64,000 nucleotides of DNA, from positions 448,001 to 512,000 of the forward strand of contig CAVVHE010000005.1 in the NCBI GenBank assembly GCA_963748015.1, in the 5' to 3' direction. A program made the position numbers and the translations under genes. The notes beneath the pieces are model-generated. The model was not told the DNA's origin, did not search any database, and worked only from the letters and a program-made list of their open reading frames with translations. This document shows, piece after piece, positions 23,057 to 47,856 of this stretch (position 1 is its first letter; every line of letters starts with the position of its first letter). This DNA comes from Terriglobia bacterium (GTDB lineage Bacteria; Acidobacteriota; Polarisedimenticolia; Polarisedimenticolales; JAIQFR01).

Positions 23057-23635
23057 TCAGCTCCCCTGGAGCGAGCCGGCGTACCAGCCGACCCCGGGGA
23101 TCGCCGTCCCCGCGCTGTCGATGAGCGCGGCGTTCTGGACCTTGATCTTGTAGGTTCCCGTCGCTTTCACGCGGAACGTCAGTTTCACCAGGGTCTGGGG
23201 CGTCGTGACGTTCACGCCGGCCACCGCTCCGGTGCGGGAGGCGCCCACGACGACCGGCCACACCCCCGTGGCCGTCGCCGTGTAGTTCGGGGCGTTGCCA
23301 CCCTGCTCCAGGAGGGAGCCCGCCGACGGCTGGACGAACTCCACGTTCGCCGGGATGCAGCCGTCCGTCGAGTCGCACGCGACCTCGAACGCCGCGCCGT
23401 TGACCCCGCTCGTCCCGGACACGTTGACCTGCACGGTGACGAGATCGTCGGACACAGCGCTCTGCGCCATCGTGACGGTGAGGGCGCTCGTCGGACTCGG
23501 CGCGCTGGGATCCGGCGCGAAGCTCGCGGTGATGGGGTTCGGCCCCGGGCCGATCGTGCCGCCGCTCGATCCGCCGCCACAGGAAAGGGCGGCAGCCACC
23601 AGGGCAAGGACCGCTAGGTGCATGGCGCGCGTCAT
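23057..23635 (-). CDS. Lipoprotein with cohesin-like domain
   Basis: Lipobox-like ALSC followed by GGGSSGG; cohesin-type pattern VTVQVNV..VNGAAFEV.CD..VEF..AGSLL..VVGASR..TLVKLTFRVKATG. Confidence 0.65.
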   Translation of the reverse strand: MTRAMHLAVLALVAAALSCGGGSSGGTIGPGPNPITASFAPDPSAPSPTSALTVTMAQSAVSDDLVTVQVNVSGTSGVNGAAFEVACDSTDGCIPANVEFVQPSAGSLLEQGGNAPNYTATATGVWPVVVGASRTGAVAGVNVTTPQTLVKLTFRVKATGTYKIKVQNAALIDSAGTAIPGVGWYAGSLQGS

Positions 23636-23666
23636 GGTCCGGCTTCCTCCTGTATCGAGCTCGAGA

Positions 23667-24500
23667 TCAGAAATGGCATACCGGCCGGGGTGTCTTGGCC
23701 ACCCACGCCGAGCCGGACCAGAACTTGCCGAAAGCGCTTCCTACATACGCCAGGTCGCTGCCGTCCACCGCGCCGTCGCCGTCGATGTCCGCGTCGGGCT
23801 GATAGACGCTGTCCCCCGCGTGGCTCCCGAAGACCACGGAGAGGGCGTTCGTGTCCCAGCCGTCGAGCCAGCCGGTCGTGCAGTCGTATCCCTTGTCGAG
23901 ATCGAAGCGCGCGGGGTTGACCTGGACCCCGAAGGCCTGCGTCTTCGAGAGCGTCGTGCCGCTGGGGTTCGTCACGGTGAGCGTGAACCAGCCGACCTCC
24001 GCCGCGCGAATGCCGGGACCCGTGGGCATGACGGTCGCGGCGGCCTGGAGGTGGTTGCAGGCGAGCCGCGTCGGGTTGTCGAGGAACACGTTCGGGTTGT
24101 CGACCGTCACGGTGGCGCCGGGCTCGAAGTTGTTGCCGGTGAGATCGAGGGTGAACTGGGCGCCCTGGATCGCCACCGAGGGGCTCGCGGCCCCGACCAC
24201 GGGCCGTGGATAGGCGGCGACCTCCGCGGAGAACCCCGACTCGCCCACGCTGTTGAACGCCTTCACGGCGAAGTAGTAGGTCGTGCAGTCCGTGAGGGTG
24301 TCGACGGTGGCCCCGGTGGAGTAAACCTCTTTCGGCGTCGATCCGTACTGCCCGGAGGCGGTTCCCCAGTAGACGCGATAGCCGGATGCTCCCGTGGAGG
24401 GATCCCAGGTGAGATCGATGGTTGCCGCGTGGAGCAACACGGGAAGCGAAGCGAGGACGCTCGCTATCCCTACCAGGCGGATGACCCTGCGAACGACCAT
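23667..24500 (-). CDS. Secreted FN3 + IPT/TIG + dockerin-like protein
   Basis: GGAGG RBS before ATG 24500; signal peptide; LTWD..GYRVYWG..TTYYFAVKAFN FN3; Ig-like GNNFEPGA; duplicated Ca-loop FDLDKG..LDGWD / ADIDGDGAVDGSDL..FG. Confidence 0.75.
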   Translation of the reverse strand: MVVRRVIRLVGIASVLASLPVLLHAATIDLTWDPSTGASGYRVYWGTASGQYGSTPKEVYSTGATVDTLTDCTTYYFAVKAFNSVGESGFSAEVAAYPRPVVGAASPSVAIQGAQFTLDLTGNNFEPGATVTVDNPNVFLDNPTRLACNHLQAAATVMPTGPGIRAAEVGWFTLTVTNPSGTTLSKTQAFGVQVNPARFDLDKGYDCTTGWLDGWDTNALSVVFGSHAGDSVYQPDADIDGDGAVDGSDLAYVGSAFGKFWSGSAWVAKTPRPVCHF

Positions 24501-24546
24501 TTGAGAATCCTCCAAGACGGGCCGGTCGGGCCCCCGCCCTAGACTC

Positions 24547-24562
24547 AGCAACCGAGATGCCA
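24547..24562 (-). promoter_or_regulatory. Sigma54 promoter of the FN3-dockerin/cohesin operon
   Basis: Minus strand TGGCATC-TCGG-TTGCT, matching TGGCA-N7-TTGC, about 45 nt before the start. Confidence 0.7.
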
Positions 24563-25110
24563 TCGAGGTCTTTTCGGGATCGAGCGCGATGCCCAGGCCG
24601 AATAGCCCGATTCGCGTGGCTTTTGGCGCGGATTGGAGGTGTTTCTGGACCTTGCCCCCGCCGGGCAGACATTGGCTTCAGATTTCAAAAGTGCAATTTC
24701 TTCCACGGGCGGGTAATACCGACCTTTCGTTTCCTCCTTCGGGTTCGTGATCCGGGTCCGCCTTCGGCCGCTCGAGCGATCGTCGGGGCTTGCGGGCCTG
24801 CCGTGGTCGGGGTCAGGGACGACCTGATGTCACCCGCGGGCCCCCCATCGGGACTCGATGACACCTCCCCCTCCTCGTCAGATTAGCACGACCCTGCGGC
24901 CGGTGGTGCAACCCTCGCGGGCGACGCTCGGGTGGAGCCGAGAGGCAATGGCCTCGATCCCAGAACCCCCGACAACTCGGGAAAGAGGAGGAATCAGCAA
25001 TTTGCTATGGACAACGCGGGAGTCCGGCGGTACCTCTCTAGTAGGCACGCCAGCGAGCATCCTCGACCGCGGGTCGGTCGCGAAAATAGGCAGTTCGAGA
25101 GCCTGGGCGT

Positions 25111-25126
25111 TGGCATGGGATGGGCT
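25111..25126 (+). promoter_or_regulatory. Possible sigma54 promoter
   Basis: TGGCATG-GGAT-GGGCT (GG-N10-GC) about 155 nt upstream of ATG 25283. Confidence 0.35.
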
Positions 25127-25282
25127 TTCCAACCGGGGTCGCTCATTCAGGACGGGCGGTTCCCCTCGTCGCGTTCGATGAGCAAGTGTGCCCGCGCCCC
25201 CCGCGAGCGAAGGCGCGAGAGAGGCCGGTCTTCCATGGTGAAGCACACGCCGGGGACCTCCCCGGCGAAAAGGAGTGAGCAG

Positions 25283-26101
25283 ATGAGAAAATTCTTCTTT
25301 GGGTTGGCGGTCGCCGGGCTTCTGGCGGCCGGGGGGTCCCTCTCATCGGACGTGCAGGCGTGTCCGTATGCATGCTGCCTGCCGGACAACACCTGCGTGG
25401 AGGTCGAATCTCAGGAGTTCTGTTGGGCACAGGATGGCACTGCCTTCGGCGGCTACTGCGCCGACCTGACCTGCGGCGGGGTTCCCGACGGCTGCCGGAT
25501 GACCGGTGGCGGCGTGGACACGTTCTTCAACTGGAATGGAACGATGGCCACCGGAACGGATGATCCCGACCGCTACACGTTCGGCGGTCAAGTCGGAGCC
25601 CCCACGGCGGCCCAGCCGTCCCCCCACGGCGAGTGGACCCACCACCAGCAGAGCGGGCCGGATGGGTACTTCGTGTTCCACGCCGGCACCTCGAGCGCGC
25701 CTGCGGAAACCAGGATTGCGCGGGTGGACTGCAGTGATCCCGGCTGGTGCAACCCCGCGCGCCAGGCCCCGGACAAGCAGATCGACTATGTGGGTATCGG
25801 GGCGTTCAAGAACATCAGGAAACCTTCCGCCCCGCTGATGGGGGTGATTCCGGGCGTGACCTTCCATTGGTTCGAAGCCCACGTCGAAGACCTGGGCGAA
25901 CCCGGCAAGGGCGGAAAGGTAGAGCCGCCGGCGTCCTACTGCCCGCCCGAGGGCTCGGCTGGAGCGATTGCCGACTGCGACTGCCCCGACTTCTACTCCT
26001 TCACGATTCACGCGGACACGAGTCCCGCCTCGGCAATCATTTACCACGTGCACGGTTACATCACCGGAGGCAACCTGCAGATCCATCCCCCGATTCAGTA
26101 G
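25283..26101 (+). CDS. Secreted Cys-rich hypothetical protein (ACC..DxxC module plus TGGG..TFGG beta-rich domain)
   Basis: AAGGAG RBS, signal peptide MRKFFFGLAVAGLLA..VQA, ACCLPDNTC module, CRMTGGG..YTFGGQVG..GEWTH..GGNLQIH. Confidence 0.7.
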   Translation: MRKFFFGLAVAGLLAAGGSLSSDVQACPYACCLPDNTCVEVESQEFCWAQDGTAFGGYCADLTCGGVPDGCRMTGGGVDTFFNWNGTMATGTDDPDRYTFGGQVGAPTAAQPSPHGEWTHHQQSGPDGYFVFHAGTSSAPAETRIARVDCSDPGWCNPARQAPDKQIDYVGIGAFKNIRKPSAPLMGVIPGVTFHWFEAHVEDLGEPGKGGKVEPPASYCPPEGSAGAIADCDCPDFYSFTIHADTSPASAIIYHVHGYITGGNLQIHPPIQ

Positions 26102-26188
26102 TGAAGGAAAAGCTCGCGGATCGCGTCGGCGGCCGCGCCATTTTCGGGCTCTCAAGTCGCTTGTTTGCTTGCGTTTCGAAAAGGAGAC

Positions 26189-26217
26189 TTGACTGATCCG
26201 CTTGTTTGCGGTATAAA
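26189..26217 (+). promoter_or_regulatory. Sigma70-type promoter for the precursor/HPr-rel-A locus
   Basis: TTGACT-N17-TATAAA. Confidence 0.55.
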
Positions 26218-26340
26218 CTATTCTAGAGGTTGGGTCTGGCTTCGGGATGCTAGCGTGTTTACGTGTCCTGCGGCAGGATCTACTTCTTGGTCTCGTCCCT
26301 GCATGACGACCCCGGACAACGCGGGAGACGAGGAGGGTGG

Positions 26341-26625
26341 ATGAGCACTGAAAATGGCCTTCCCCAGGAAGTCCGTTCCGAGAACGATAGCGAACTGGAT
26401 CGCGTCGAATCGAGGCGCCGCCTTCTGAAAGCCGGCCTCGTGGCCGTGCCGTTCCTGGTGACCCTCCATGCCCTGCCGGCCCGCGCCGGTGGAGCTCGCG
26501 GACAGGGCTCGCTGGGTGTTTACGGATACGGTGACGACCGCGACAGGGGTGGCGGCCACGGCAAGGGCGGCGGCAAGGGCGGCGGCAGGGGCTCCAGCAA
26601 GACTTCGCAGGGAGACAACCGATAG
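26341..26625 (+). CDS. Small Tat-motif, Gly-rich peptide; candidate RiPP-like precursor (94 aa)
   Basis: GAGGAGG RBS; acidic N-terminus, SRRRLLKAGLVAVPFLVTLHALPARA leader, Gly/Ser/Lys-rich core. Confidence 0.7.
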   Translation: MSTENGLPQEVRSENDSELDRVESRRRLLKAGLVAVPFLVTLHALPARAGGARGQGSLGVYGYGDDRDRGGGHGKGGGKGGGRGSSKTSQGDNR

Positions 26626-26796
26626 GGCCGAGCTCCGGATCCTCGCCGTCGATCTTCCATCCCGAGGACGCAAGCACCTCCTCTCGAAATCCTCGACATC
26701 GCGCGAAGGCGTTGATCCGTCGTGCTCGCGTCGCCTTTCGCGGATGTGGATGAAAGCCGCTTGCCCCGCGACCTCCACAACGCATAACCTGACGAC

Positions 26797-27096
26797 GTGA
26801 TCCACGATCGTGTCGTTTGGCGCGTTGCGTCTCGCACGCCGCTGAGGTGGCGCGGTTGGGACGGCGAGTGGGTGGTGTATCACCCGGATTCCGGCGACAC
26901 GCACCTGCTCGACCCGCTGGCCGCGGAGGCCCTCCGGTCGCTCGAGGCCTCGCCGGCCGGTGCCGCCGCGCTCGTCGAGCGCCTTGCCGGCGGCACGGAC
27001 GCCACCGCCGCCGAGGAGCTTCCTGCGGCTGTCGAGCGTTTGTTGCGCGCCTTCGACGAGGTCGGTTTGATCGAGCCGGTCGATGATCCTGCGTGA
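26797..27096 (+). CDS. PqqD-family peptide chaperone (HPr-rel-A system, RiPP recognition element)
   Basis: WDGEWVVYHPDSGDTHLLDPLAAEAL...LLRAFDEVGLIE pattern. Confidence 0.85.
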   Translation: MIHDRVVWRVASRTPLRWRGWDGEWVVYHPDSGDTHLLDPLAAEALRSLEASPAGAAALVERLAGGTDATAAEELPAAVERLLRAFDEVGLIEPVDDPA

Positions 27097-27994
27097 GCTG
27101 AGCGAGTCCGCGCAGTTCGCTCGCCTGCGGGGCGCAGGGATCGTCCTGGACACCGGGCCGTTCTCCGTACGAATCCGCGGCTCGATTCCCGAGCTGGCGG
27201 GACCGATGCGTCTCCTCTACGGGAACCACACGATCGCGAGCGAGGGAGCGATCGTGGACGCGGACGTTCGCATCGAGCCACCCCCCTCCCTTCGCCGCTG
27301 GTTTGCGCGCCAGGTCGTCGCCTACATCGACGGCGAGCGCCCGTTCCATCCTTTCCCGCGACGACTCGCCTTTCCCATGCTGGAGTGGGTGCTGAACTGG
27401 TGCCTGTTCAACCGGCCGCACCAGTACCTCGTCCTTCACTCGGCCGCCGTGGAGCGCGGCGGGCGCGCCTTGCTCCTGCCGGGGGAGCCGGGGGCCGGCA
27501 AGAGCACGCTCTGCGCCGCACTGATCCTCCGCGGCTGGCGGCTGCTGTCGGACGAGGTCGCGATCGTCCGCCCCTCGACCGGCGAGATCCTCGCTGTTCC
27601 GAGGCCCGTGGCCCTCAAGGAGGAATCGCTCGACGTCATCCGCGCCTTCGAGCCGTCGGCGATGCTCGGCCCCTCGTTCCCCGAGACCCGCAAGGGCACC
27701 GTCACCCATCTCCAGCCACCGGCGGACAGCGTCGACCGATCGCGCGAAACCGCCGCCCCCCGGTGGATCGTCTTCCCGCGGCATGCCGCCGGAGCGCCCG
27801 CGAGCCTGCAGGCGGTCCGAAAGGCCGAGACGCTCCTGCGCGCGGGGAGGAACGGCTTCAACTACAGCTTGCTCGGAGCGGGTGGCTTCGAGAGCCTGGC
27901 CGACGTCGTGAGCGGCTGCGACGGGTACGATCTCGTTTACGGCGATCTCGGCGAGGCCGTGCGACGCCTCGCCGAGCTGGCGAAGGAAGCCTGA
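27083..27994 (+). CDS. HprK-related kinase A
   Basis: LEWVLNWC, LHSAAVE, PGAGKSTL Walker A, GWRLLSDE, PRPVALK, ETRKGTVTH. Confidence 0.85.
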   Translation: MILRELSESAQFARLRGAGIVLDTGPFSVRIRGSIPELAGPMRLLYGNHTIASEGAIVDADVRIEPPPSLRRWFARQVVAYIDGERPFHPFPRRLAFPMLEWVLNWCLFNRPHQYLVLHSAAVERGGRALLLPGEPGAGKSTLCAALILRGWRLLSDEVAIVRPSTGEILAVPRPVALKEESLDVIRAFEPSAMLGPSFPETRKGTVTHLQPPADSVDRSRETAAPRWIVFPRHAAGAPASLQAVRKAETLLRAGRNGFNYSLLGAGGFESLADVVSGCDGYDLVYGDLGEAVRRLAELAKEA

Positions 27995-27997
27995 GGG

Positions 27998-29132
27998 ATG
28001 CGGCCGGAAACCGGCGCGGGCGGCGATCGTTGGGCGGCGGGGCGCGAGATGCGCCTCGACGCCCTCCGCGACCCGCGCTCGCTCGCATCGCTCGGCGAGC
28101 CCGAGTGGGACCGGGTCCTGCGCGGCTACCGGAGAAAGGGGCTGCTCCCCGCGCTCGCGTTCGCCGTGGATTCCGCCGGGCTGTCGAGCGCCCTGCCGCG
28201 CAAGGTGCGGGAGCATCTGCTGGCGGCCCGGCTCGAGGGGGACGCCCACGCGCGGGTGATCCGCTGGGAGGCCAACCGGATCCGGCGCGCGCTTCGCGAC
28301 CTGCGGGTGGACGTCGTCGTCCTCAAGGGGGCCGCGTACGTCCTCGCCGGGCTCCCGCCGGGCCGAGGACGCCTGGTGCAGGACCTCGACGTGATGGTCC
28401 CGAAGGAGAAGCTGCCGGAAGTCGAGCGGGCTCTCCTGGAGGCGGGATGGGAGTGGGCGAACGAGGATCCGTACGACCAGCGCTACTACCGCGCCTGGAT
28501 GCACGAGCTGCCGCCGCTGCGCCACCGCACGCGGGACACCCTGCTCGACGTGCACCACACGATCCTCCCCGAGACGGGACGGTTGAGGCCGGATGCGCGC
28601 AAGCTGTTCGAGCAAGCGCGTCCGATCGGGGAGCCCGGGTTCCTGGTCCTCGCGCCCGTGGACATGGTCCTGCACGCGGCGGCCCACATGCTCTCGGACG
28701 AGACGCTCGGCGGTGCCGTGCGGGACCTCGTCGACCTCGACGCCTTGCTGAGGCACTTCGCGGCCGCGGAACCCGGCTTCTGGGACCGCCTCGTCCCGCG
28801 CGCACGCGAGCTCGATTTGTCGCGACCATTGTTCTACGCGCTGCGTTCCTGCGGCCGGATACTGGGCTCGCAGATTCCCGCCGCGGTGAACGCCGAACTC
28901 CGGCGGGCCGGGAAGCCGCCGTGGCCCGTCACCCGAATAATGGACGCTCTCCTCACGAGGTGCCTTCTGGGGAAAACGTGCGAGCGGGCGCGAGCGGGCA
29001 TCGCGGTCGCCGAGTGCTTCGTCTATATCCGGCGCTCACTGGCTGCGCATGCCGGCGTGGTTGCTGATCCCCCACCTCACCCGGAAGGCGGCGCGGCGCT
29101 ATCGTCGGGAGGACGATGACCCACCCCGGTAG
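27998..29132 (+). CDS. Nucleotidyltransferase-family protein (NTP_transf_5-like), with an apparent 1-nt frameshift near 29031
   Basis: VVLKGAAY..GRLVQDLDVMV, YYRAWMHELPP, DVHH; the conserved-looking tail HWLRMPAWLLIPHLTRKA continues in a shifted frame to TAG 29132. Confidence 0.8.
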
Positions 29133-29422
29133 CCGAAGGACGCATTGACGATCCCCGGATCCTGGGGTATAGACCTCACCAGGACGCTCGCGAGTTGCCG
29201 TGCGGCGCTCGAAGTGCGGGGGTTCTGGGCGGACTTAGGCGCATCGAGGAAGCCGTGGTTCGAATCGACCGAATGTCAGGGCGTGAACTCCCCGCGGGCC
29301 CACGTCGGGCCGCTTGTCGAGGCAGCGTGATGATCCCGGCGATCGGCCGGTGCGCCGCGCTTCGCGGCGACAGTTCCTCCGGTTCACGCGCCAGCAAGGC
29401 TGGGCGGATAAAGGAGCCATCC

Positions 29423-29723
29423 ATGCGAATGCAGGATCGTCTTGCTGCTCTCGACGCTTGCCCTGATCCTCGGGGCGACCTCCTGCCAGCAGCTTCCCGC
29501 ACCCCGCTCCACCGCGCCGGGAGCGCTCCAGACGGAGGACATCGCGTACGACGACGCGATCCCTCTGGACTACGGAACTCTCGTCGGCGTCACTTCTATT
29601 CCGGAAGGTCCGTACACCGCCGGGCTGTGGTTCGAGAAGGCGGACAAGACCATCGTTTTCGTCAAAGTCAACTTCTCTCTCGGAAAGGTCGACAATAGAG
29701 CACTGATCCTCCCGCGTCGATGA
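29423..29723 (+). CDS. Small lipoprotein, hypothetical (5' frameshift suspected)
   Basis: AAGGAG+ATG 29423 is one base out of frame with LLLSTLALILGATSC..AIPLDYGTLVGV..LWFEK. Confidence 0.55.
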
Positions 29724-29758
29724 CGTGGCCACCATGAAGCAGAACAAGGAGATTCCCA

Positions 29759-29986
29759 ATGACTCTCGATAAGCTGTACTCCTTAGTCTCTCGGGTCTTC
29801 TTCTTCGGGGCCTTTGTGCTGTTGTGCCTGATTGTCGTGGAGAAGATCGCCAACATCCGCGGATTCACGATTCTCCACGGCTACAGCGGCGAGCGCGTCC
29901 TCGAGCTTGCCGGAGTCCTCGTGATCTTCGTGATCGCCATCCTGCTGCGGGAGATCCGGGAAGTACTGCAGGCGAAGAAGGCCTAA
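29759..29986 (+). CDS. Small two-TM membrane protein, hypothetical
   Basis: AAGGAG RBS, two hydrophobic segments, C-terminal LLREIRE. Confidence 0.65.
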   Translation: MTLDKLYSLVSRVFFFGAFVLLCLIVVEKIANIRGFTILHGYSGERVLELAGVLVIFVIAILLREIREVLQAKKA

Positions 29987-30228
29987 GTCGGGCCGCTGCG
30001 CCGAGGGCGGGATGCGGCTCGGGGCGAAGCGGGAGTACGCTCCCGATGCGATGGATTTCCCGCTCGGGGGCTGCGTCGCGCGCCCGCGATGAGGCTCACC
30101 CGCAGGCTTCCGCGATGCGGTGGACGGAAGTACCCTCCTCCGCCGTCAGGTCATCGAGCAACATGCAAGAAAAGACGAGCGCTTTTTTCGCCTCCCTGGC
30201 GGAATGAGGGCTGGGAGACTCGACGAAC

Positions 30229-31743: not shown

Positions 31744-31844
31744 CGAGGAAACCTGCGTTCCCTTGATCATCCCCACGGCACGCCGTCGGGCATATCCGCG
31801 TCGGGATTCCGTCGTGCGACGGCTCGCGGAGGGCCCCGCACCCC

Positions 31845-31914: not shown

Positions 31915-33906
31915 CTACCGGACCCTGACGTTCAGTGGCGCCGTCGGCGGGAAGACGCCGACCGGCGTGGCCTGGGCGCGAGCCGAGGAGGAGGCGTTCC
32001 CCGACGCGTCCACGGCGAAGACGCTGTAGTAGTAGGTGGTCCCGTTCGCGAGCCCGGTGTGCAGGTAGCTGTCCGCGCTGCCGGGCGCGGCCGGCTTCTC
32101 GGTAACCGCGAAGCCGTCCGACGGGCTGACCGGGTACTTCCCGTCGGTCCGGTAACGGATGACGGCCTTCGCGAAGTCGGCGTCCGCCGGGTTGGTCCAG
32201 TTGAGCGTGCTCTGCGCGTTGCCGGCCGCCACCGCGAATCCGGTCGGCGCCGCCGGCGGCGTCTGGTCGTCCACCGGTTGCTCGGTCGGCACGAAGAGCG
32301 GATCGTTCGTGAGCAGGACGCGGTCGGCACGCGCCTGGGCCTCGTACCCACCCAGCTCGACGCTGTGCAGTCCTTGCGTCAGCGTGTAGGAGCGGCCGGC
32401 GACCCAGACCCACGCGCCGTTCGAGGAAGCGGTGATGGATGCGCGTGCGGCTCCGTCCACCGACTCGAACCAGGCGTTCGAGGACGCGTTCGCCCCGTAG
32501 AGGCGCACCCAGACGAACCAGGTGCCGGCGGTGGGCACGTTGACGCCGAACGTCGCGGTGCCGGACGGAGAGGCGGCGCTGCCGGTGGCCGTTCCGGACG
32601 GCGTGTCGATGTAGGCGCCGCCGAAGGTCCCGGCCCCGGCCGTCGCGCGGACCGGCGCCACGAGGGTGCCGGCCTCCGCCTCGAACCGCAGGTAACCGTA
32701 CGTGCCGGCGGAGGTGGAGAACGTCTGGTCGGGCGACGAGGTCGTGACGTTGCTCGCCGCGTCGGCGCTCCGCACGTGGTACTGGTAGGTCGTGGACGGC
32801 TCGAGACCCTGCAGGTTCACCGCGTGGCTGGTGACCAGGGCCGTGTCGATCGTCGTCTGCTGGTACCCCGTCTGGCCGGCCTTCCGGTAGAAGACCTGGC
32901 TGTCGGCGTTCTCGTCGGTGGTCCAGGTGATCGACGCGGTCGTCGAAGCAACGGAACCGGACAGCACCGCGGAGACGGCCGGCGCCGTCGTGTCGGGCAC
33001 CGTCGCGAACCCGGTGGCGTGTGTGAAGGTGGCGGCCATCGCGTGATTGGCCAGGTCCATCGCGCCGGAGGCGCCGCCGACGACCTGGATCTTGTAGGTC
33101 TTGCCGGCCGTCAGGCTGGAGGCCGGCGTGATCGTGGCCGTGCGGCCGTCGGCCGAGAGCGACGGCGAGCCGGCGGCCTGCGCCACCGCGTTGACCCCGT
33201 CCATCAGCTTGACGGTCCCCGAGGTGATCGACGTCGCGAGCATCGCCTCGCTGAACGTCACCGCGGGCCTCACCGACGTGGCGACGCCGGTGGCGCCGTC
33301 GGCCGGCGAGGTCGAAACGACCGTGGGAATCGTGGCCGCCTGCACCGTGAAGAGGCTTGCCCCGGTTCCTTTCACCGCGTTCGGATTCGTCACGTCGATG
33401 TTGGTGGAGCCGACGGTTGCGGACGCTCCCACGGTCACGTTGGCGACGAGCTGTGAGCAGGAGGTCACCGTGACCGAGTTCACCGTCACGCCCGTGTTGG
33501 CGAACTGGACCGTCGCGCCGTTCTGGAAGTTCGTTCCGGCGATCGTGAGGTCGAGACGCCGTCCCTGCTCCGCCGCGGAGGGCGCCGAGACCGTCACCAC
33601 CGGTCGCGGCCAGCTCGCCACCTCGGTCGCGTAACCGGAGTCGCCGGCGCTGTTGTAGGCCTTGACCGAGAAGTAGTAGGTGGTGCAGTCCGAGAGGGTG
33701 CTGATCGTCGTTTCGGTGACGTTCCCGACGTCGAGCGGGCTGGCCCCGTACACGCCGGGACTCGTTCCCCAGTACACGCGGTACCCCGTCGCGTTGGCGG
33801 AGGCATCCCAAGCGACGATGACACTCCCCGCCGACGCGGCCGAGACCGCGAGCCCCAGGGCAAAGAGCAGGACCAGGACGAGGCGGCACGGATTCGTGAA
33901 CGACAT
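31915..33906 (-). CDS. Large secreted multi-domain protein: FN3-IPT-Ig(Big_5-like)-FN3-CBM-like-FN3
   Basis: AAGGAGGAG RBS, signal peptide, GYRVYWG/TTYYFSVKAYN, TSPADGATGV..VTFSEAM, ITWTTDE..LEPSTTYQY, FEAEAG, LANGTTYYYSVFA. Confidence 0.8.
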   Translation of the reverse strand: MSFTNPCRLVLVLLFALGLAVSAASAGSVIVAWDASANATGYRVYWGTSPGVYGASPLDVGNVTETTISTLSDCTTYYFSVKAYNSAGDSGYATEVASWPRPVVTVSAPSAAEQGRRLDLTIAGTNFQNGATVQFANTGVTVNSVTVTSCSQLVANVTVGASATVGSTNIDVTNPNAVKGTGASLFTVQAATIPTVVSTSPADGATGVATSVRPAVTFSEAMLATSITSGTVKLMDGVNAVAQAAGSPSLSADGRTATITPASSLTAGKTYKIQVVGGASGAMDLANHAMAATFTHATGFATVPDTTAPAVSAVLSGSVASTTASITWTTDENADSQVFYRKAGQTGYQQTTIDTALVTSHAVNLQGLEPSTTYQYHVRSADAASNVTTSSPDQTFSTSAGTYGYLRFEAEAGTLVAPVRATAGAGTFGGAYIDTPSGTATGSAASPSGTATFGVNVPTAGTWFVWVRLYGANASSNAWFESVDGAARASITASSNGAWVWVAGRSYTLTQGLHSVELGGYEAQARADRVLLTNDPLFVPTEQPVDDQTPPAAPTGFAVAAGNAQSTLNWTNPADADFAKAVIRYRTDGKYPVSPSDGFAVTEKPAAPGSADSYLHTGLANGTTYYYSVFAVDASGNASSSARAQATPVGVFPPTAPLNVRVR

Positions 33907-33957: not shown

Positions 33958-33973
33958 TGCCGGATTCGTGCCA
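33958..33973 (-). promoter_or_regulatory. Sigma54 promoter of the large FN3 gene
   Basis: Minus strand TGGCACG-AATC-CGGCA (GG-N10-GC) about 50 nt before the start. Confidence 0.6.
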
Positions 33974-39018: not shown

Positions 39019-39028
39019 GCTCGCCTCC

Positions 39029-40336: not shown

Positions 40337-40351
40337 GTCGTATGCAACCTC

Positions 40352-40883
40352 TCACCGCTCGAAGAGCGGCCAGCCGAGATCCTGTTCGGAAACCACCGTG
40401 GCCGGAAGCGGCCACGCGATGGAAAACGCCGGGTCGTCGAACCTGCACGCCGGTCGCGGACGCCGGGGCGTAGAACGCCGACGTCATGTAGTGCATCTCC
40501 GTGTCGTCTTCGAGGGTCTGGTAGCCGTGCGCGCAGAGCTCGGGCAGCAACAGCATCCGGCCGTTCTCCGCGGTCAGCTCCTCCCCCCACCATTTCCCGA
40601 ACGACGGCGAGCCCGGACGGAGGTCGAGCGCGACGTCGAACATGGCTCCCCGCGTGCACCGGACCAGCTTGGCCTCGAGCGCGGGCGCCGCCTGGAAGTG
40701 CATGCCCCGGATCGTTCCCCGGCACCGGCTGAAGCCCATGTTCGCCTGGACGGGGGCGAAGCGGATGCCGTGCTCCTCGAACTCCCGCGCGCACCAGGCC
40801 CGCATGAACCGGCCGCGCTCGTCCTGGTGCGGCGACGGATCGATCACCCAAGCGCCCGCGAGGGCGGTTTCCCTGAAACGCAC
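40352..40883 (-). CDS. rfbC: dTDP/CDP-4-keto-6-deoxyhexose 3,5-epimerase (RfbC/RmlC family), 1-nt frameshift near 40445
   Basis: DERGRFMR, GTIRGMHFQ, KLVRCTRG, AHGYQTL; the tail FDDPAFSIAWPLP..SEQD lies in another frame ending at 40352. Confidence 0.85.
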
Positions 40884-40906
40884 GACGCTCCCCTACTTCC
40901 GCTCGG

Positions 40907-41987
40907 TCAACGAAGCCCAAGCAGATTCTCGTAGCGCTCGATCTGGGCCATCGTGACCGCGCGAAGGTCCCGGCCCTCGCGATGCGCCCGGTACCACTCG
41001 ACGATCCAGGGAATCGCTTCCTCGAGCCGCAGGCGCGGCGACCACTCTAGGCGCGACCGGGCCTTCGAGATGTCCAGCTTGAGGAGATGGGCTTCGTGGG
41101 GATGCGCTCCCCCGTCGGTCTCCCAGCGCGCCCCCTCGCCCCACATCGTCGAGATGCGCTCGACGATCCAGGACACGGGGCGGGCGTCCTCCTCGTACGG
41201 GCCGAAGTTCCACCCCTCCGCGAACGCCGTTCCGTCGGCGTGCAGGCTCTCCGCGAGCGACAGGTAGCCGCGGAGCGCTTCCAGCACGAACTGCCAGGGC
41301 CGGACGGCGTGCGGGTTCCGGATGCGCACCGGCTTGCCGGCGGCGAAGGACCGCATGATGTCCGGGATGAGCTGGTCCTGGGTCCAGTCGCCGCCGCCGA
41401 CGACGTTGCCCGCCCGGCCGGTGGCTACCGCGATGCCCGGCTGCGCCGCCCCCTCGCCGGTGAAGTACGACTGCCGGTAGGCGGCGGTGACCAGCTCGGA
41501 GCAGGCCTTGCTGTTCGAGTACGGATCGTGCCCGCCCAGGGGCTCCGACTCCCGGTAGCCCCACACCTGGTTCCGGTTCTCGTAGCACTTGTCGCTGGTG
41601 ACGTTCACCACGACGCAAGGCCTTCCGACCTCGCCGCAGCGCCTCCAGGAGGTGGACCGTGCCCATCACGTTGGTCGCGTAGGTCTCGACCGGGTGCTCG
41701 TAGGAGTATCGGACGACCGACTGGGCCGCCATGTGGATCACGATCTCGGGCCGCGCCGCGGCCACGGCGCGCTTCAGGGCGTCGAGGTCGCGCACGTCGC
41801 CGTTGACGGACTCGATCCCCCTTGCGACGCCCGCGAGCTCGAACAGGCTCGGGTCCGTCGGGGGAGGGAGGGCGTAGCCGGTCACTTCCGCTCCCAGCGA
41901 CTCGAGCCAGAGAGAGAGCCAGCTCCCCTTGAAGCCCGTGTGACCGGTCAGCAGGACGCGCTTTCCCTTCCAGTAACTTCGGTTCAT
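40907..41987 (-). CDS. rfbG: CDP-glucose 4,6-dehydratase, frameshifted near 41620-41640
   Basis: TGHTGFKGSWL, HMAAQSVV, then VTSDKCYEN, DPYSNSK, RAGNVVGGGD, RPWQ in a second frame. Confidence 0.9.
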
Positions 41988-42210
41988 CGTGGGTGTCGCG
42001 ACCTCATCAGGAGGGCGGGCCCGAGCCGCCCGCCGCGGGTGGCTGCGCACTAGTCCTCGGTGAGAGCCGCCCGCGCGATCATATCGCAATTTTCGTGCAA
42101 CTTCCCGGGTGTCTCATCGGCCCGGCGGGCCTCGACTTGAGCCGCCGGAGTACGCGGGAGCTTTCTGCCCGCGAAAGGAGACGCTCGGCCTTCGGGGAGC
42201 CCGAGGCTCG

Positions 42211-44076
42211 TCACGCCGGCCCACGCTCGCCGAGCACCTCGTACACCTTGAATTTCCGACCGCTGCCCACCAGCTTGAAGGCCTCTGGGTACGCGTCGAG
42301 CATCTTGTCGAAACACACCTGGTCGGAAGGCTGGTAGTAGGACTGAGCCCGCTGAACGACGAGGACATGGCTCACTTGACGCTTGCGGATTCCCTCCAGC
42401 AGCACGGCAGGCCTCGAGATCGGCGGGAACCAGAAGACGCGCCGGTGCGCGTGGTAGTAGACGATCGCGTAGTGGCTCGCCAGCACGATCGCGCCCGGCG
42501 GCGTGTGAGCCGCGATCCACTTGGCCCCTTCGACGTCGGGTGGGCTGATCTCGTCGGCGGTGAGATGCAGGTTGTGCCACCCCTCCTTGACCTCCTGCGA
42601 AAGGCCGACCGCGACGAGGAAGAGCGCCAGAACGAATCCCACCGCCGCTAGGCGGGGGCGGGTACGATCGAGCCAGTGCTGCAGCTTGTCGGGTCTCTCG
42701 GCGGTGAAGGGAAGACGCCCGCTCCACGCGATCCACGCCGAAACGACGGTGGCGACCGACCAGAACAGCGCCGAAAGATCCGCCTGCATGCGGCCGCTGG
42801 CGACGTCTGCGCTCCGGAGCCCGAAGGCACAGAGAGCGGAGTGGATTCCGAGCGGAACCGCGAGGGCGAGCGTGCAGATGGCCCCCCATCGGGGTCTCCT
42901 CGCGAACAACCTGCGGACCGCCTGCGCCCCGCGCCAGACGTAGACGAGAGCGAACGGGGTCGTCGGCATCAGGAAACGAAACTCGAACGCCCACGACCAC
43001 AGGAGGAACGCCGCCTCGGCACCAAGGAAGTACCAGTCCATGAGACGGCCGCCGGTTCGCCACAACGAGTAGGCCACGCCGATCAGCGCCAAGACGATGA
43101 TCCCGGCGATCGCGGGCGATGACCACAGCGAGTCGATCCAATGGTGGGCCAGGATCTCGCTCACTCCCTCGGCGCCGTCGCGGAGATTGCGTCCCACGCG
43201 AAAGAGCCAGTCGCCGGCGGAGGCTCTTCCCAGCTCGGGGAAGTTGCCGAGCTTCAGGGTCATCTGGGACAGGTAGGACGCGGGATAACCCGGTAGCGGC
43301 CAATCCGACGACGTGGGAGCAAGGTGCATCCACCAGCCTTGGCAGCCAACGCCGACGATGAATACGGGAACGAAGGTCCGGAGGCGCGTCGCGGCGCGCG
43401 GGCGGTCGAGGACGAACGACGCCGCCATCCAGGCCGCCAGGCCGATCACGAGGGCGATGCCTCTCGACTCGATCATGAGGGCGGCGAGCACGAGGAGCGT
43501 CGTGAGAAACGCCCAAAGCGCCCGGGGAAGCCGCCGGGACGAGCGGTCCGCGGTTCTCGCGAAGAGCAGTGCGGCCGACGCCGCAAGGATGTAGGGATAG
43601 CAGGGGACGACAACCTCAGCGGCATAGAAGAAGAACCACTCGGAAGAGGCGAGAAGCAGGCAAACGGCCGCCGCCAGCGGGCGACTCTCCTCGCGCTTCA
43701 GCAGTTCGTACGTGACAATCAGGCCAGCCGTCCCGAAGACGGCCATGGCGCCGAGCAGGATCGAATAGCTACTGCCGAACAGCGCGGAGATCGCCGCGAT
43801 GATGACGGGCAGGCCGGGGGGCTGCACGAGTTCCGGGTTGCCGTCGAATCCGTGAAGTCCGTGCCGCAGCATCGACATGCCGCGCTCGGCGTATCCGTAG
43901 TCGTCGCAGTAGAAGTCGGACCTGCGGTGCAACAAGACCGCCAGCGTTCCGAATCCCAGGATCAACGTGTAGACCAAGAAGTCCAGTCTTCGGCCGGTCC
44001 ACCCGCCCTGCCTAGATTCCGCGGAAGCCCGCTCCCACCGAAGACGGCCTAGCAGGATTCGGAGCTTGGAGAGCAT
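42211..44076 (-). CDS. Polytopic membrane GT-C-fold glycosyltransferase (ArnT/PMT-like)
   Basis: DDYGY, PPGLP N-terminal loop, many TM segments, RFLMP, C-terminal WIAAHTPPGAIV. Confidence 0.7.
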   Translation of the reverse strand: MLSKLRILLGRLRWERASAESRQGGWTGRRLDFLVYTLILGFGTLAVLLHRRSDFYCDDYGYAERGMSMLRHGLHGFDGNPELVQPPGLPVIIAAISALFGSSYSILLGAMAVFGTAGLIVTYELLKREESRPLAAAVCLLLASSEWFFFYAAEVVVPCYPYILAASAALLFARTADRSSRRLPRALWAFLTTLLVLAALMIESRGIALVIGLAAWMAASFVLDRPRAATRLRTFVPVFIVGVGCQGWWMHLAPTSSDWPLPGYPASYLSQMTLKLGNFPELGRASAGDWLFRVGRNLRDGAEGVSEILAHHWIDSLWSSPAIAGIIVLALIGVAYSLWRTGGRLMDWYFLGAEAAFLLWSWAFEFRFLMPTTPFALVYVWRGAQAVRRLFARRPRWGAICTLALAVPLGIHSALCAFGLRSADVASGRMQADLSALFWSVATVVSAWIAWSGRLPFTAERPDKLQHWLDRTRPRLAAVGFVLALFLVAVGLSQEVKEGWHNLHLTADEISPPDVEGAKWIAAHTPPGAIVLASHYAIVYYHAHRRVFWFPPISRPAVLLEGIRKRQVSHVLVVQRAQSYYQPSDQVCFDKMLDAYPEAFKLVGSGRKFKVYEVLGERGPA

Positions 44077-44323
44077 CGGATTCTCCTTCCGACACGTCTC
44101 GATCACTCCCGTCGGAGTACGCGCCGAGGCGCCCCGCGCGCGCGCCAGCACGGACAGCCTCGGGCCGGCCCGCCCCCCCAGGGCGCGTGCCACGATGCCG
44201 ATGATTGTAACCCCACGTTCTTCCTGGGGGTCAACTCGCGTCCGGTGCCGTCCGGGATGGAACCCGCCGTCTCAGGTGCATCCGCCCCCTCGACGAGCGC
44301 ATTACGAAGCTTCGCACTTCGCG

Positions 44324-45592
44324 TCAGTCTCCGTCTTTCTCAAGCCAAGCGCCGCGCCAGAACAACGGCTCGTACTGGGCGTTGAACTCTTGTCGCTCCC
44401 CCGAGAAGTGTACGTCGCGCAGAATGTAGGCTGCCGTCTTCATTGTCCGCAGTTCACCTGTGACGATATCGATGAGCTTCTTGACCTCGGATTCGACGCG
44501 ATATCGACGACCACAGTGCTTCAACATATCCAGCTCGAACCCCAGTCCTCGGTGAACAAGCTGGCCGTTGAGCGTCGCCCGAATCTCGGCGGACGACCTG
44601 ACGACGACTCGATCACCCGCCTCCACACGAGCCTCGTCGCGTGTTCCAGCAGCAGGCACGGCAACCCCAAACTCAGGGAAACCGACTCCTTGACGCAGGT
44701 GCTGCAGCTCGTTGAAGAGGTTCGTCAGCCATCCGACGATGAACGCGGCCGGTGCCACATTCCCAGCGACGAGCGGCCGCACGAAATTGATCGCGCTCCA
44801 ATCCCCGATCGGCCGCGACGCCGCGTGAAGCTGTGTCAGCTGACAGGCGTAGTGAGGCCCTTGGGTGCCGAACTGCAGAACGGACGCGTCCTTCAGCGGA
44901 TCTGACAGATCGGACGATACCGGCGCCCCTGCGGTGTCGTTAATCCGATCGATTCTTCGAATCCAGGCCGACTTCCAAATCGTATGACACGCAGCCTCAC
45001 AACTTCCGTGATCCGAACCGCCGCACATCATCCCGACCAACAATACGGCGCCATCCATGTGCCGCATGCGGCGAGTTTTCCTGTAGTCGAACAGTCGATG
45101 CATGCACCGGAATACGTGCGCGCGCTGGCCGCACATCGGGAGCATCTCTCGCATGAAAGGCAATTGCTCCAGACACCCGCGTTCATCAAGCGTTGCGCGT
45201 ACTTCGGCCCATGGCTTGATCTCAACCAGGTCTCCTACGACGAAGTCATGTCCCAACACGCGCCGCGCAAGCCAGCGACGCGTGCGACTTACGTGCACGG
45301 CTGCTGCTGCCGTGATTGCTTCAGGTTCGCGGGAACGGTTCAGGTCGAGAAAGAGATCCCGCTCGCCACGTGCGGCACGTTTGTGCCGGACGATCACGAC
45401 CGCACCCGCACACGCAAGAGTGGCGGACCCGAGCGCGACGAGCACGCTCAGGGTGGCGACGACGGCCCCGAGGATCCTCGGAAGCCCATGGTGCGCAAGG
45501 AGAGCGAACAGCAGCGCCACTAGAACGAGCGCCAGACACGCGACCGTCGTCTTTGCGTAGCTGCGGAGTACGAGGTTGGAATGACAGCTCAC
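44324..45592 (-). CDS. Hypothetical protein with two tandem SH3-like Cys-containing domains and an N-terminal TM anchor
   Basis: Repeat 1 VGDLVEIK..RATLD..FMREM..CGQR..C..C..C..WK..W; repeat 2 AGDRVVVRS..RATLN..FELDM..CGRR..FWRGAWL. Confidence 0.7.
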   Translation of the reverse strand: MSCHSNLVLRSYAKTTVACLALVLVALLFALLAHHGLPRILGAVVATLSVLVALGSATLACAGAVVIVRHKRAARGERDLFLDLNRSREPEAITAAAAVHVSRTRRWLARRVLGHDFVVGDLVEIKPWAEVRATLDERGCLEQLPFMREMLPMCGQRAHVFRCMHRLFDYRKTRRMRHMDGAVLLVGMMCGGSDHGSCEAACHTIWKSAWIRRIDRINDTAGAPVSSDLSDPLKDASVLQFGTQGPHYACQLTQLHAASRPIGDWSAINFVRPLVAGNVAPAAFIVGWLTNLFNELQHLRQGVGFPEFGVAVPAAGTRDEARVEAGDRVVVRSSAEIRATLNGQLVHRGLGFELDMLKHCGRRYRVESEVKKLIDIVTGELRTMKTAAYILRDVHFSGERQEFNAQYEPLFWRGAWLEKDGD

Positions 45593-46095
45593 GATTCCAG
45601 CGAGTCAGCACGGTGGCTGTGAAACAATGTCCATTCATCACGATCGTTCGCGCTCACGTCCTTTCCCGCTCCTGTGAGTCGTCGCAGGAAGGCAGCCCGA
45701 TCGACGATTCGCGTCCGGTCGACTTCGATTTCACGCAACTTCCAGCGATCGCGCCGCAAAGGTCCAACATCCACCGTTCTGGCGGCATGGGTATCGTACC
45801 GGCCCAATCCGTGCCAACAGAAGCGATCGAGGGCGCGACTCAGCCTCTCGCTCGGCCGCTTCTCGAACCACGCGACCCGCGAACGCGAGTGTCCGGCGAA
45901 CCGATGGCCCGCGACGATCCTCTTGCGCTCCTTGCGAGCGGCGACGCCGGCGAGCCACTCGCCGGGAAGCTCCCGCCCGAACATGCCGCTGATACCGAGC
46001 GGAACGCTTGGGGGAGAAGCAGTCCCCTTCTCGTGCGGGGTGCGGGCATGTCTGGCGGTGAGTCTCCTGCTGAGGGAGTACTTTGGACTTATCAT
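45589..46095 (-). pseudogene. Fragment resembling the C-terminus of the FkbM methyltransferase at 58879
   Basis: SGMFGRELPGEWL..RIVAGHRFAG..YDTHA aligns by eye with SGLFGEELPGEWM..KIVMGYRLAG..WYDTHA; no SAM-binding N-terminus. Confidence 0.6.
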
Positions 46096-46158
46096 AGCCG
46101 AGCTTGCGAATTAGCACGACGGCTCATTCACGCGTCTCGCGCCGTCCAAGGCAAGTCT

Positions 46159-47064
46159 TTAGATCGTGTACTCGTCGGAAAGGCCGAGCGCGCGCCGCGC
46201 CGCCTGTGTGACATCACGAACCAGCGAGCTTCTTTCCCATAGCGTGGCGCGCGCGAGGAACTTCCCAATTCGCAAGCGATCGCCCGTTGACAGCGGGCAC
46301 GCGAGCAAGACTCGCATGCGCTCGTACGCCCAAGTCCAGTGCGGGAAGTTCAAGCCGGCCTTGGCGGTCGGCTCCACCCACTTCCTCATTTCTTTCGCTG
46401 TCTTTACACGCGATATCGAGCCGGGATGAAATCGCCTGAGCAGAACCGGTCCTACCGGTTGGACCACCTGGCCTCGCAGCGCCAGTTCCCAAAGAAAGAC
46501 CGGGTCCCAACCGGGATAGTTGGGCCCCGTTCGCATGAGCCGCAGCGTTGACGCACGCAACAAGCCGTACGCGATCACATGCTGATAGTTCGCCAATAGG
46601 ACGGCGTGCGCGCGCTCAAACGCGTCGGAAGATTGCAAGTCAAGGGTCCTAGGCGCGGAACCGATGATTTCACCCTGCTCGTCGATGTTCTTCGTGTCGG
46701 GCACGACCGCTTCGACTTCGGGCCGGGTGTCCAACACCGTTACCATCGCCAGCAGCAATTCGGGCTCCATGATGTCGTCGGCCCCAGCCCAACGGAAATA
46801 CTGCTTTGGACTCTCGATCGCATCGAGCACCCGTCGATGGTTCCAGAGAATTCCTCGATTCTCATCGGATCGCAGGTACTTGACCCGCTTGTCCTTGCTC
46901 GCGTAGACGGCGCAGATTTCGGGGGTCGCGTCTGTCGAACCATTGTCCGAAATCACCAGATCGAAATCGCCGAAGGACTGGGCCAAATGACTTTCGATCG
47001 CGGCGCCGAGATACTTCTGGCCGTTATACACTGGAAGGCCAATGATCACTTTGCGTTCATTCAT
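46159..47064 (-). CDS. Glycosyltransferase family 2
   Basis: IGLPVYNG, ISDNGSTD, YFRWAGADD, ELALRG. Confidence 0.9.
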   Translation of the reverse strand: MNERKVIIGLPVYNGQKYLGAAIESHLAQSFGDFDLVISDNGSTDATPEICAVYASKDKRVKYLRSDENRGILWNHRRVLDAIESPKQYFRWAGADDIMEPELLLAMVTVLDTRPEVEAVVPDTKNIDEQGEIIGSAPRTLDLQSSDAFERAHAVLLANYQHVIAYGLLRASTLRLMRTGPNYPGWDPVFLWELALRGQVVQPVGPVLLRRFHPGSISRVKTAKEMRKWVEPTAKAGLNFPHWTWAYERMRVLLACPLSTGDRLRIGKFLARATLWERSSLVRDVTQAARRALGLSDEYTI

Positions 47065-47076
47065 CGAGTTGCTCGT

Positions 47077-47856
47077 CTACCGGTTTCCCGCCTCGAAGGT
47101 TTTCCAACCGTAGCTCGACGAGGTGACACCGCCCCTATCGGTAGGCCAGAATCCCACCCCGGGTTGTCCATCGGTCCATGTCGAATTGGATGGGCCGGTG
47201 AGCACGAGCGAGCCATTCCTGTATACCTTGATGACGCTGCCGATGATCTCGACCCGCAGCACATCGCCGTCGACCGCCGGTGCAATCGTGGTACTGGCAA
47301 GGGACGTGTAGTCCCCGAGCGGGCCGTTCCAGCGGATAATCGCGATTTCGCCGTTCGTCTGACCGCCCCCTCCCCACAGCACTTCGTAGCCGCGCGCGTT
47401 GTGCGCGGTGATCTTGAATCGGAGCAGAAGCTCGATCTCGTGGCTCCCGCTTGGCGCGTAGCCTGCCGCGCGGTACACGGTCCCCTGTGCGTACTGGTCG
47501 GCTGCGAACGTGGTGTTCAGGACCGCGATGTCGTCGTTGTAGCTGCTGACGATCACCGCCCCGTAGGCTCTGCCGGGTATCGTCTGCACGTTGTTCCAGT
47601 CGAGTCCGACCGTCTTGCCGTTGATCCAATTCCCACCCTCGGAGATCGGATTCTCCGCGAGCGGGAAACCCGTGCCATAGAAATCATGGGAATTGCCGTC
47701 CGGGAGGCTTAGGATTCTGACATTCCTGGGGGCTTCCGGGGTCTGCGAAATCGCTGGTGATCCGGAACCCAAGGCAATTGTCAGGAGCAAAACGGATCTG
47801 GTAATGCAGTTTGCCAGATACCGGTGTGTGGGTTGGGGAGAATTCATGATCTCCAC
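47077..47856 (-). CDS. Secreted beta-sandwich (concanavalin/lectin-like) protein with an N-terminal PEAPRNVRIL peptide
   Basis: Signal peptide, ENPISEGGNW, ADQYAQG, GDVLRVEIIG..VYRNG, GQPGVGF. Confidence 0.65.
   Translation of the reverse strand: MEIMNSPQPTHRYLANCITRSVLLLTIALGSGSPAISQTPEAPRNVRILSLPDGNSHDFYGTGFPLAENPISEGGNWINGKTVGLDWNNVQTIPGRAYGAVIVSSYNDDIAVLNTTFAADQYAQGTVYRAAGYAPSGSHEIELLLRFKITAHNARGYEVLWGGGGQTNGEIAIIRWNGPLGDYTSLASTTIAPAVDGDVLRVEIIGSVIKVYRNGSLVLTGPSNSTWTDGQPGVGFWPTDRGGVTSSSYGWKTFEAGNR

Follow-up and report, generated by a model that had tools for sequence, protein, structure and literature searches.

In the chaperone-usher pili (Fim, Pap and Caf1), an immunoglobulin (Ig)-like pilin that lacks strand G is completed by an N-terminal extension. 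In the Type V pili of the Bacteroidia, a lipoprotein anchor and the stalk and tip subunits are joined by a C-terminal donor strand, and the N-terminal strand is removed by proteolysis. SpyTag and SpyCatcher are an engineered covalent pair with an incomplete Ig-like domain. Chaperone-free filaments have been described for archaea, as threads (PMC9715654) and as cannulae (10.1101/2024.12.30.630787), and beta-strand exchange within the fibronectin type III (FN3) fold has been described for anastellin and fibronectin (PMC13233970). Here, we describe a putative system of detached FN3 strands in a 64,000-nucleotide stretch (the window; positions 448001-512000 of contig C5) from G000, a Terriglobia genome of 4.83 Mb that is 100% complete and has a GC content of ~69%. 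Four open reading frames (ORFs), all on the minus strand, encode the proteins a, b, c and d, and were found where a first-pass annotation made from the sequence letters had placed them. A homologue of b with 37% identity is labelled Candidatus Polarisedimenticolaceae. We use “socket” for an FN3 domain without strand A, and “tag” for a free peptide resembling strand A.

Comparative evidence from sequence makes it probable that these proteins contribute to a sigma54-controlled, chaperone-free docking scaffold, where a anchors b, and the tags of c and of cargo proteins complete sockets in trans. According to this model, a, b, c and the cargo would be exported by Sec under sigma54 control. Lipidated a, seated on a membrane, would very probably bind the dockerin of b, as suggested by the pairing of their genes, and b would convert the a anchor into a strand-A-less FN3 socket. 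An exported protein with a terminal strand-A tag of 11-15 residues would then probably insert the tag into the socket and complete the fold. Protein c, with an N-terminal socket and a C-terminal tag, would plug into b and present its own socket further out, singly or as a chain, a step for which we see an even chance. Tagged cargo would end the chain; most of it would be beta-helix or lyase-like proteins, together with unassigned enzymes from exopolysaccharide (EPS) loci. Lastly, d may dock by an N-terminal tag as a late and optional addition, with a likelihood a little short of even. The data themselves concern the sequence anatomy, conservation, gene order, promoters and single-chain folds of the proteins; the binding steps and their stoichiometry are what we infer, and the assembly may face either the outside of the cell or the periplasm.

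The anatomy of the socket is clearest in b (23667..24500), the proposed adaptor or base, which consists of a signal peptide, an FN3 socket, an IPT-like domain and a dockerin-like domain. The socket (24201..24425) comprises strands B to G and begins at the mature N-terminus. Pfam fn3 is matched only from profile position 15 onwards, and solved FN3 chains align to b from their residues ~21-36, i.e., from strand B. When b was aligned with 36 homologues, one of them N-terminally cut, the domain opened with A-G-T-I-x-L-x-W directly after the signal peptide. Since the signal peptide abuts strand B, there is no room for strand A. A start at strand B right behind the A-x-A end of the signal peptide is seen both in this alignment and among the socket genes at loci L034-L073. 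The second domain of b is IPT-like (TIG, E 0.007; NF058597 over its cut-off), and an invariant cysteine pair, with one residue in the socket and one in the IPT domain, is present in all aligned b and c proteins, which suggests a fixed, extended rod. Three sockets were found in G000: those of b and c, and one in C4:704222-704800. NCBIfam has no model for either socket or tag.

Protein c (31915..33906), the proposed extendable spacer, has a signal peptide, a socket recognized by Pfam and by alignment (33601..33828), IPT, Big_5 and FN3 domains, an unassigned domain, a further FN3 domain, and a C-terminal tag that ends at the stop codon (31918..31950). The c class, defined as sockets without a dockerin, comprised 41 ORFs from 40 regions picked among the listed socket matches, with 118 weaker matches lying outside that listing; a tag was assigned by rule at the end of 33 of the 41. 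Mature c proteins range from 178 to 656 residues, and head, IPT domain and tag are constant while the middle is exchanged. The first-pass annotation had read c as a combined acceptor and donor, and the retention of head and tail over this range of lengths lends that claim comparative support. Two socket proteins, L046:9158-11029 and L068:2656-4815, end in L-G-V-A-E in place of the tag.

Sockets were also seen in other architectures. P0164, P0165 and P0221 begin with an N-terminal socket, after which come 18-19 complete FN3 repeats and an end of the T9SS (type IX secretion)/FlgD type, and P0221 includes six socket-like repeats with long linkers, making it a possible multi-socket scaffold. In G000, 43 of 54 profile matches (49 proteins) correspond to a second FN3-like domain, with the pattern YDVxRGxL...C...GxYG, located C-terminally on large exported proteins such as C4:697163-700825 and C5:557363-562249. 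In C4:704222-704800 this domain is fused to a socket, and that protein perhaps links two sorting systems.

To rank tags without circularity, a strand-A profile was built from 527 segments that lie before strand B in the complete FN3 repeats of long, unrelated proteins. These came from a search of 1.84 billion proteins with a socket profile; the matches were dominated by long complete-FN3 repeat proteins, such that their counts are not socket counts, and the search served only for building the profile and viewing architectures. Complete repeats of the socket subfamily have the consensus TTPPAAPTGL ahead of strand B. Among the C-termini of 3800 genes of G000, predicted with our own codon model, the strand-A profile ranked the four C-terminal tags 1, 3, 9 and 10, which is above chance. 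One of these tags belongs to c. The other three are carried by unrelated proteins: C5:515019-517112 (697 amino acids, no Pfam family) and C5:518862-519836 (a beta-helix gene whose start lies in another frame), both just outside the window, and C8:471751-472752. Enzymes with C-terminal tags form the main cargo class, which the first-pass annotation overlooked, and which lies just past the window. The C-termini of C5:588266 and C6:76785 also scored highly; they belong to unrelated-looking proteins and were excluded from the tag count, as were the top-scoring N-termini of G000. Frame changes, due either to sequencing error or to decay, interrupt several of the EPS and cargo genes (window positions 40907-42089 and 59807-60889; C5:518862-520288).

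A degenerate DNA pattern for the tag gave ~4000 matches, was judged too loose, and was replaced by a profile of 20 positions, in which one of two tag types, RRxD (see below), dominates; it matches only one of the four tags of G000, at E 0.08. With this profile, 42 of 61 related genomes had matches, 96 in total. We inspected 41 new places, taken down the ranking with the weakest omitted. Twenty-nine were in coding-like frames, and 26 of the 29 end no more than 10 residues from the stop codon; of the three that do not, two represent strand A in FN3 domains that are complete. The remaining places were five low-scoring, real-looking ORFs whose match is also terminal, and seven off-frame matches. 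Pfam assigned eight of 26 scanned tagged proteins to beta-helix or pectate-lyase-like families and one to an FN3-like family; 17 had no family. The census of terminal peptides and strand-A-less heads proposed in the first-pass annotation was thereby carried out in G000 and across its relatives.

The tags fall into two types, PxxVxNLRRxD (RRxD) and PxAPxNLRV (RV). In c proteins, a nine-residue loop after strand B accompanies an RRxD tag in 27 of 27 cases, and a seven-residue loop accompanies an RV tag in five of seven, including the c protein of the window. The tag type of cargo equals that of c from the same genome in 22 of 23 unrelated cargo proteins, a count that leaves aside six c-like fragments and five cargo proteins from genomes with no assigned c type, and that comes from genomes that are kin rather than independent, such that Fisher values for these associations are overstated. 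G000 is of RV type throughout; its three genus-mates are of RRxD type. A tree of 29 c middles placed the c protein of G000 in an open fork, leaving the number of tag-type switches unresolved, and G011 was wrongly labelled RV in that tree. If socket and tag do bind, binding in trans is required, because proteins with only a tag and proteins with only a socket coexist in one genome. Taken with the conservation and the terminal position of the tags, the matching types support the earlier claim that socket and tag are partners, at the level of sequence comparison.

A rival explanation would be that there is no interaction: six-stranded FN3 heads might be stable alone, with the tails being truncated FN3 remnants or plain proline-rich ends. 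FN3 arrays do recombine at domain borders, proline-rich C-termini are common at 69% GC, and the scores of several unrelated genes fall among those of the tags. We nonetheless consider this explanation very improbable, given that the same border between strands A and B is cut in many unrelated cargo proteins, that coding tag matches are so largely terminal, that unrelated proteins have a tag type in common genome-wide, and that c keeps its tag through the reshuffling of its middle.

A different alternative accepts the interaction and dispenses with the shaft. The tail of c could insert in its own head, giving a ring or a self-capped monomer, and b and the C4 socket protein alone would then take cargo. 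Covariation of loop length and tag type within c would also be expected for an interaction in cis, long c proteins of six or seven domains could loop back, and the c gene is often far from b. The shortest c proteins, of 178 residues (G013 and G023), point the other way. A single-chain model of the G013 protein (pLDDT 95.8, pTM 0.84) has a six-stranded head, and leaves the tag as coil outside the head, with pLDDT down to 68. Self-insertion looks impossible for so short a protein because only ~6 linker residues follow the two-domain rod before the tag, an argument that draws on the topology of the FN3 fold. A Foldseek search with the model returned only generic Ig/FN3 pairs (TM-score no higher than 0.41). 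The cysteine pair between head and IPT domain, if it fixes an extended rod, also argues against closure, and cargo tags track the tag type of c and not the loop type of b, which points to c sockets that are open to cargo. On balance, self-closure of c is unlikely.

Several observations weigh against docking in trans as proposed here. The rule assigns no tag to eight of the 41 c-class ORFs; among these are two apparent frameshifts, one misclassified b, two GVAE ends and one tag recognized by eye. Two of the seven short-loop c proteins have RRxD tags, as does one of seven cargo proteins in RV genomes, and RV tags in RRxD genomes may escape the tag profile. Within the order, the seven-residue loop is common to all b sockets, though the majority of c and cargo tags are of RRxD type; RRxD tags may thus prefer an acceptor other than b. 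The tag columns of the minimal c protein of G013 were misaligned, making the lack of insertion in cis weak evidence, and the c protein of the window, with 638 residues, could close on itself. Finally, the cohesin and dockerin matches on which the anchor depends are below Pfam cut-offs or at E 1e-3 to 1e-5.

The proposed membrane anchor, a (23057..23635), is a lipoprotein with a lipobox at Cys19 and one cohesin-like domain (~23060-23533). Its match to Pfam Cohesin (21.1 bits, E 4e-4) is under the cut-off of 24.1; a profile from 28 orthologues of a is nearly exclusive to solved cohesins, which it matches at E 4e-5. The dockerin-like domain of b (23718..23918) had no match in a Pfam scan for dockerins. 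A profile of the C-terminal segment of b matches the dockerin chains 4wi0_B, 2y3n_B and 5k39_B at E 1e-4 to 1e-3, and an alignment of homologues showed a canonical, invariant second calcium loop and a longer first loop. Of 39 genomes from the order, 32 encode b at full length and a further three encode it in two pieces. At each of the 30 best b loci, the gene for a lies directly 3' of b, and at 26 of them a PAS kinase gene follows, with three of the four misses at contig ends. In G000, the very next gene is cohesin-like for five of five dockerin genes found with hidden Markov models and for a sixth found by eye, and most of these cohesin-like genes encode lipoproteins. Because dockerin genes recur with a cohesin gene after them, the a-b pair exemplifies a general anchoring module of two genes, and b so appears to be the adaptor that links this module to a socket. 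These data agree with the first-pass annotation, in which a was the cohesin anchor for the dockerin of b, and b had a strand-A-less FN3 and IPT head ahead of a dockerin-like end. Other two-gene modules in G000, with dockerin-ended cargo and then a cohesin lipoprotein, are C8:236619-243083, C5:294353-301608, C4:231743-234816 and C4:1344958-1348937. The same order with different cargo was seen at three of six other checked loci of the phylum (L207, L209 and L210). A type II secretion secretin-like gene, C4:596891-599293, encodes a cohesin domain at its C-terminus, and proteins of ~800 residues with the same match occur phylum-wide.

The anchor could serve a purpose other than display. If tags are transient sorting signals, sockets would be periplasmic holders or hand-off points, for enzymes that trim EPS or for type II secretion, with no lasting surface structure. 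Lipoproteins of bacteria with two membranes face the periplasm unless they are exported, and the cohesin domain of the secretin could bind a dockerin such as that of b. Moreover, the cargo is lyase-like, as are periplasmic enzymes that clear EPS, and the docking of many cargo proteins on one receptor is the pattern expected of a sorting signal. A spacer of variable length with adhesin-like domains would be ill suited to hand-off, however, and strand completion in Ig-like domains is usually very tight. In addition, b has a cohesin lipoprotein of its own beside it at every one of the 30 loci, and no protease or transpeptidase gene was seen adjoining b or c. We regard transient sorting as unlikely, to about the same degree as self-closure of c, and favor a lasting scaffold.

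Regulation of the scaffold by sigma54 is suggested by -24/-12 boxes. The box of b, which would serve the run of b, a, kinase and regulator genes, is at 24548..24562 and has all but one of the 10 core letters (TGGCA-T...TTGC). That of c, at 33959..33973, has a deviant -12 element, as in most orthologues. Upstream boxes of this kind occur in 33 of the 36 b-type entries and in 42 of the 45 c-type entries, and these sets include a few duplicate loci; 100 base shuffles gave means of 1.1 and 1.5, respectively. They also precede both neighboring cargo genes and the C4 socket gene, and a weak sigma54-like box (47995..48009), with a good -24 element and a -12 element lacking GC, lies upstream of d. The promoters claimed earlier for b and c were thus found, and are kept in most orthologues. 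Pfam and NCBIfam likewise confirmed the kinase and regulator pair reported after a. The PAS histidine kinase (21709..22887, minus strand) is not PrsK (TIGR02916, 69.6 bits against a cut-off of 300), a judgment on PrsK/PrsR that covers this adjoining pair. The sigma54-dependent, NtrC-type response regulator (20315..21712, minus strand; TIGR02915, 410 against a cut-off of 502.6) is likely to activate b and c.

As the first-pass annotation stated, the surrounding EPS genes are of the PEP-CTERM/exosortase type: the XrtA-type EPS families TIGR03087, TIGR03097 and TIGR03108 score over their cut-offs just past the window, and TIGR03088 and TIGR04063 match partially within it. The check for xrtA and PEP-CTERM genes proposed there gave no exosortase gene in G000, in a search that reached E < 1e-44 in five of five proteobacterial socket genomes, and no PEP-CTERM protein in G000 by PF07589, TIGR02595 or a regular-expression scan. 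Among the 61 relatives, TIGR02595 matches occur in two, weak exosortase-family matches in 17, and stp1 scores over its cut-off in five, namely four known RV-type genomes and G019, which belongs to the same genus as G013 and has a c protein of equal length, an exosortase fragment and two PEP-CTERM matches. The suggestion that the system is an alternative to PEP-CTERM is not supported: it is present in most of the order, stp1 is limited to those five genomes, and a full exosortase coexists with sockets in all five proteobacterial genomes tested. The socket-tag system is EPS-associated and independent of PEP-CTERM, not its substitute.

Protein d (47077..47844) is an uncertain member of the system and part of a shared EPS cassette. 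It has a signal peptide, directly followed by a tag-like peptide identified by motif and model (47710..47745), and a concanavalin A (ConA)-like beta-sandwich. Its start is more likely the ATG at 47844, behind GGAG, than 47856. In a model of d, the 20 residues of the tag region are free coil (pLDDT 45-51), and the rest is a ConA-like beta-sandwich, with fold matches to 8zdo_a (Z 19.0, root-mean-square deviation (rmsd) 3.8, 183 residues aligned), 3zr5_A (Z 18.6) and the CBM66 structure 4b1m_A (Z 17.4, rmsd 2.6, 158 residues aligned). The jelly-roll beta-sandwich is thus confirmed, and with an invariant H-E-x-E and further acidic residues, d is possibly an enzyme, as judged from its conserved residues. 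A search of the Atlas with d gave unnamed clusters and weak leads to DUF6645 and PelX_N. The gene lies within a low-GC stretch (44300-48000; 0.604) together with a 422-amino-acid gene of no named function and a GT2 gene. The close matches of this cassette are EPS cassettes of other phyla, beta- and gammaproteobacteria included, and the GT2 proteins are 63-82% identical.

The peptide of d is of the RV type of its host, which favors a real tag. Against this, it ranks 198 among 3800 N-terminal regions, and is not above chance by itself; it is altered in a relative with 87% identity, and its type is present in only two of 120 listed homologues (686 matched). The other 118 comprise 60 with an N-terminal motif of the type PCPPPxVxVxGG...C (58 exact), 16 with a lipobox, six FN3 fusions, five with a C-terminal T9SS/FlgD-type domain (by regular expression) and 31 short or other proteins. 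Two paralogues of d in G000 carry no tag, and no d homologue was found at 73 loci around b and c. By FN3 topology, an N-terminal tag would place the d domain beside the IPT domain, away from the tip. Of the earlier description of d as a cap, the donor-like peptide and lectin-like (ConA-like) domain stand and the cap role does not; d is optional cargo, not a defining cap.

The homologues of d suggest a further arrangement. In proteobacteria, a neighboring lipoprotein or Ig stalk that ends in a socket was found at four of 11 loci with PCPPP-type d and at none of 27 other d loci, and a socket gene was present anywhere in the genome for 10 of 11 PCPPP-type d proteins, compared with none of the three lipobox-type genomes tested. 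By these counts, the d domain changes its anchor by host. A C-terminal socket combined with an N-terminal, cysteine-looped PCPPPxVxV peptide on d homologues would possibly be a mirror image of the system described here, a reading tempered by the modest score of the PCPPP motif on the strand-A profile (median ~2.5). Proteobacterial lipoproteins with a proline-rich or Ig stalk and a C-terminal long-loop socket include L223:8927-9559, L227:2-655, L230:8917-9753, L233:8825-9685 and those of L249-L259.

Other genes of the window were noted in passing, all on the plus strand. A gene that diverges from b and has a weak sigma54-like box encodes an exported-looking, cysteine-rich protein with no Pfam or NCBIfam family (25235-26101). 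The cassette at 26263-29119 encodes a small glycine-rich ORF, a PqqD-family chaperone (TIGR04353), an HprK-related kinase A (TIGR04352) and a nucleotidyltransferase, which may modify the small glycine-rich peptide. An aminoglycoside 3-N-acetyltransferase-family gene (50503-51399; PF02522) lies in the EPS locus and, from its context, is probably biosynthetic.

We found no paper on a natural split-FN3 tag in the full-text literature, mostly open-access and supplements aside, and the conserved system is apparently undescribed. It may represent a natural class of peptide tags and catchers, a broader claim that we hold more tentatively than the scaffold itself: a detached FN3 strand would sort many enzymes to a cohesin-anchored catcher and a chaperone-free stalk of adjustable length, with genome-wide drift of the tag, acquisition of the host tag by incoming genes, and a mirror version in proteobacteria. 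If the model is correct, it would add a route of sorting and display free of proteases and covalent bonds to those of sortase, exosortase, type IX secretion and the cellulosome. It would account for many orphan proline-rich tails and “incomplete” FN3 matches in uncultivated soil and sediment bacteria, and give a handle on how these bacteria place enzymes on EPS. Natural tag-catcher pairs of ~12 residues would also become available, and their sequence types, at least two in number, may be orthogonal.

There are clear parallels with described systems. As in chaperone-usher pili and archaeal filaments, an Ig-like domain without one strand would receive it from the terminal peptide of another chain, and acceptor-only, donor-only and dual subunits would set the direction. 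The domain with a missing strand, on which a donor-strand mechanism turns, is evident here in the alignments of b and c and in the minimal-c model. Unlike chaperone-usher pili, the fold is FN3, strand A is the one missing, the donors are mostly C-terminal and sit on unrelated enzymes, and the anchor is of the cohesin-dockerin type; no chaperone or usher gene was found among the window genes by Pfam scan, the genome as a whole not having been searched for them. Type V pili likewise combine a lipoprotein anchor with subunits joined by a C-terminal donor strand, but their fold is different, and they need the N-terminal strand to be removed by proteolysis, which in the sockets is simply not encoded. 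Unlike SpyTag/SpyCatcher, the pair is natural, and no isopeptide chemistry was identified. Cellulosome-type anchoring (PF00963 and PF00404), non-cellulosomal pairs included, resembles the module in that a is cohesin-like and b dockerin-like. The module differs in that there is a single cohesin, borne by a lipoprotein, a socket takes the place of an enzyme on the dockerin, the enzymes would dock by a strand, the first calcium loop of b is longer, and b and a score under Pfam cut-offs. With the PEP-CTERM/exosortase system (EpsH, XrtA) and its PrsK/PrsR regulators (PMC1569441), the system of the window has in common a short C-terminal signal on many exported proteins, an EPS-locus context, sigma54 boxes, and a kinase with an NtrC-type regulator. 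The tag has no transmembrane helix, however, G000 has neither exosortase nor PEP-CTERM, and the kinase is of PAS type. Anastellin (PMC13233970) is an incomplete FN3 domain that takes strands of another chain; it is a recombinant fragment, whereas the split described here is gene-encoded and conserved. The system of the window belongs neither to the chaperone-usher pili nor to PEP-CTERM, and would work by analogy with donor-strand complementation joined to a cohesin-dockerin anchor.

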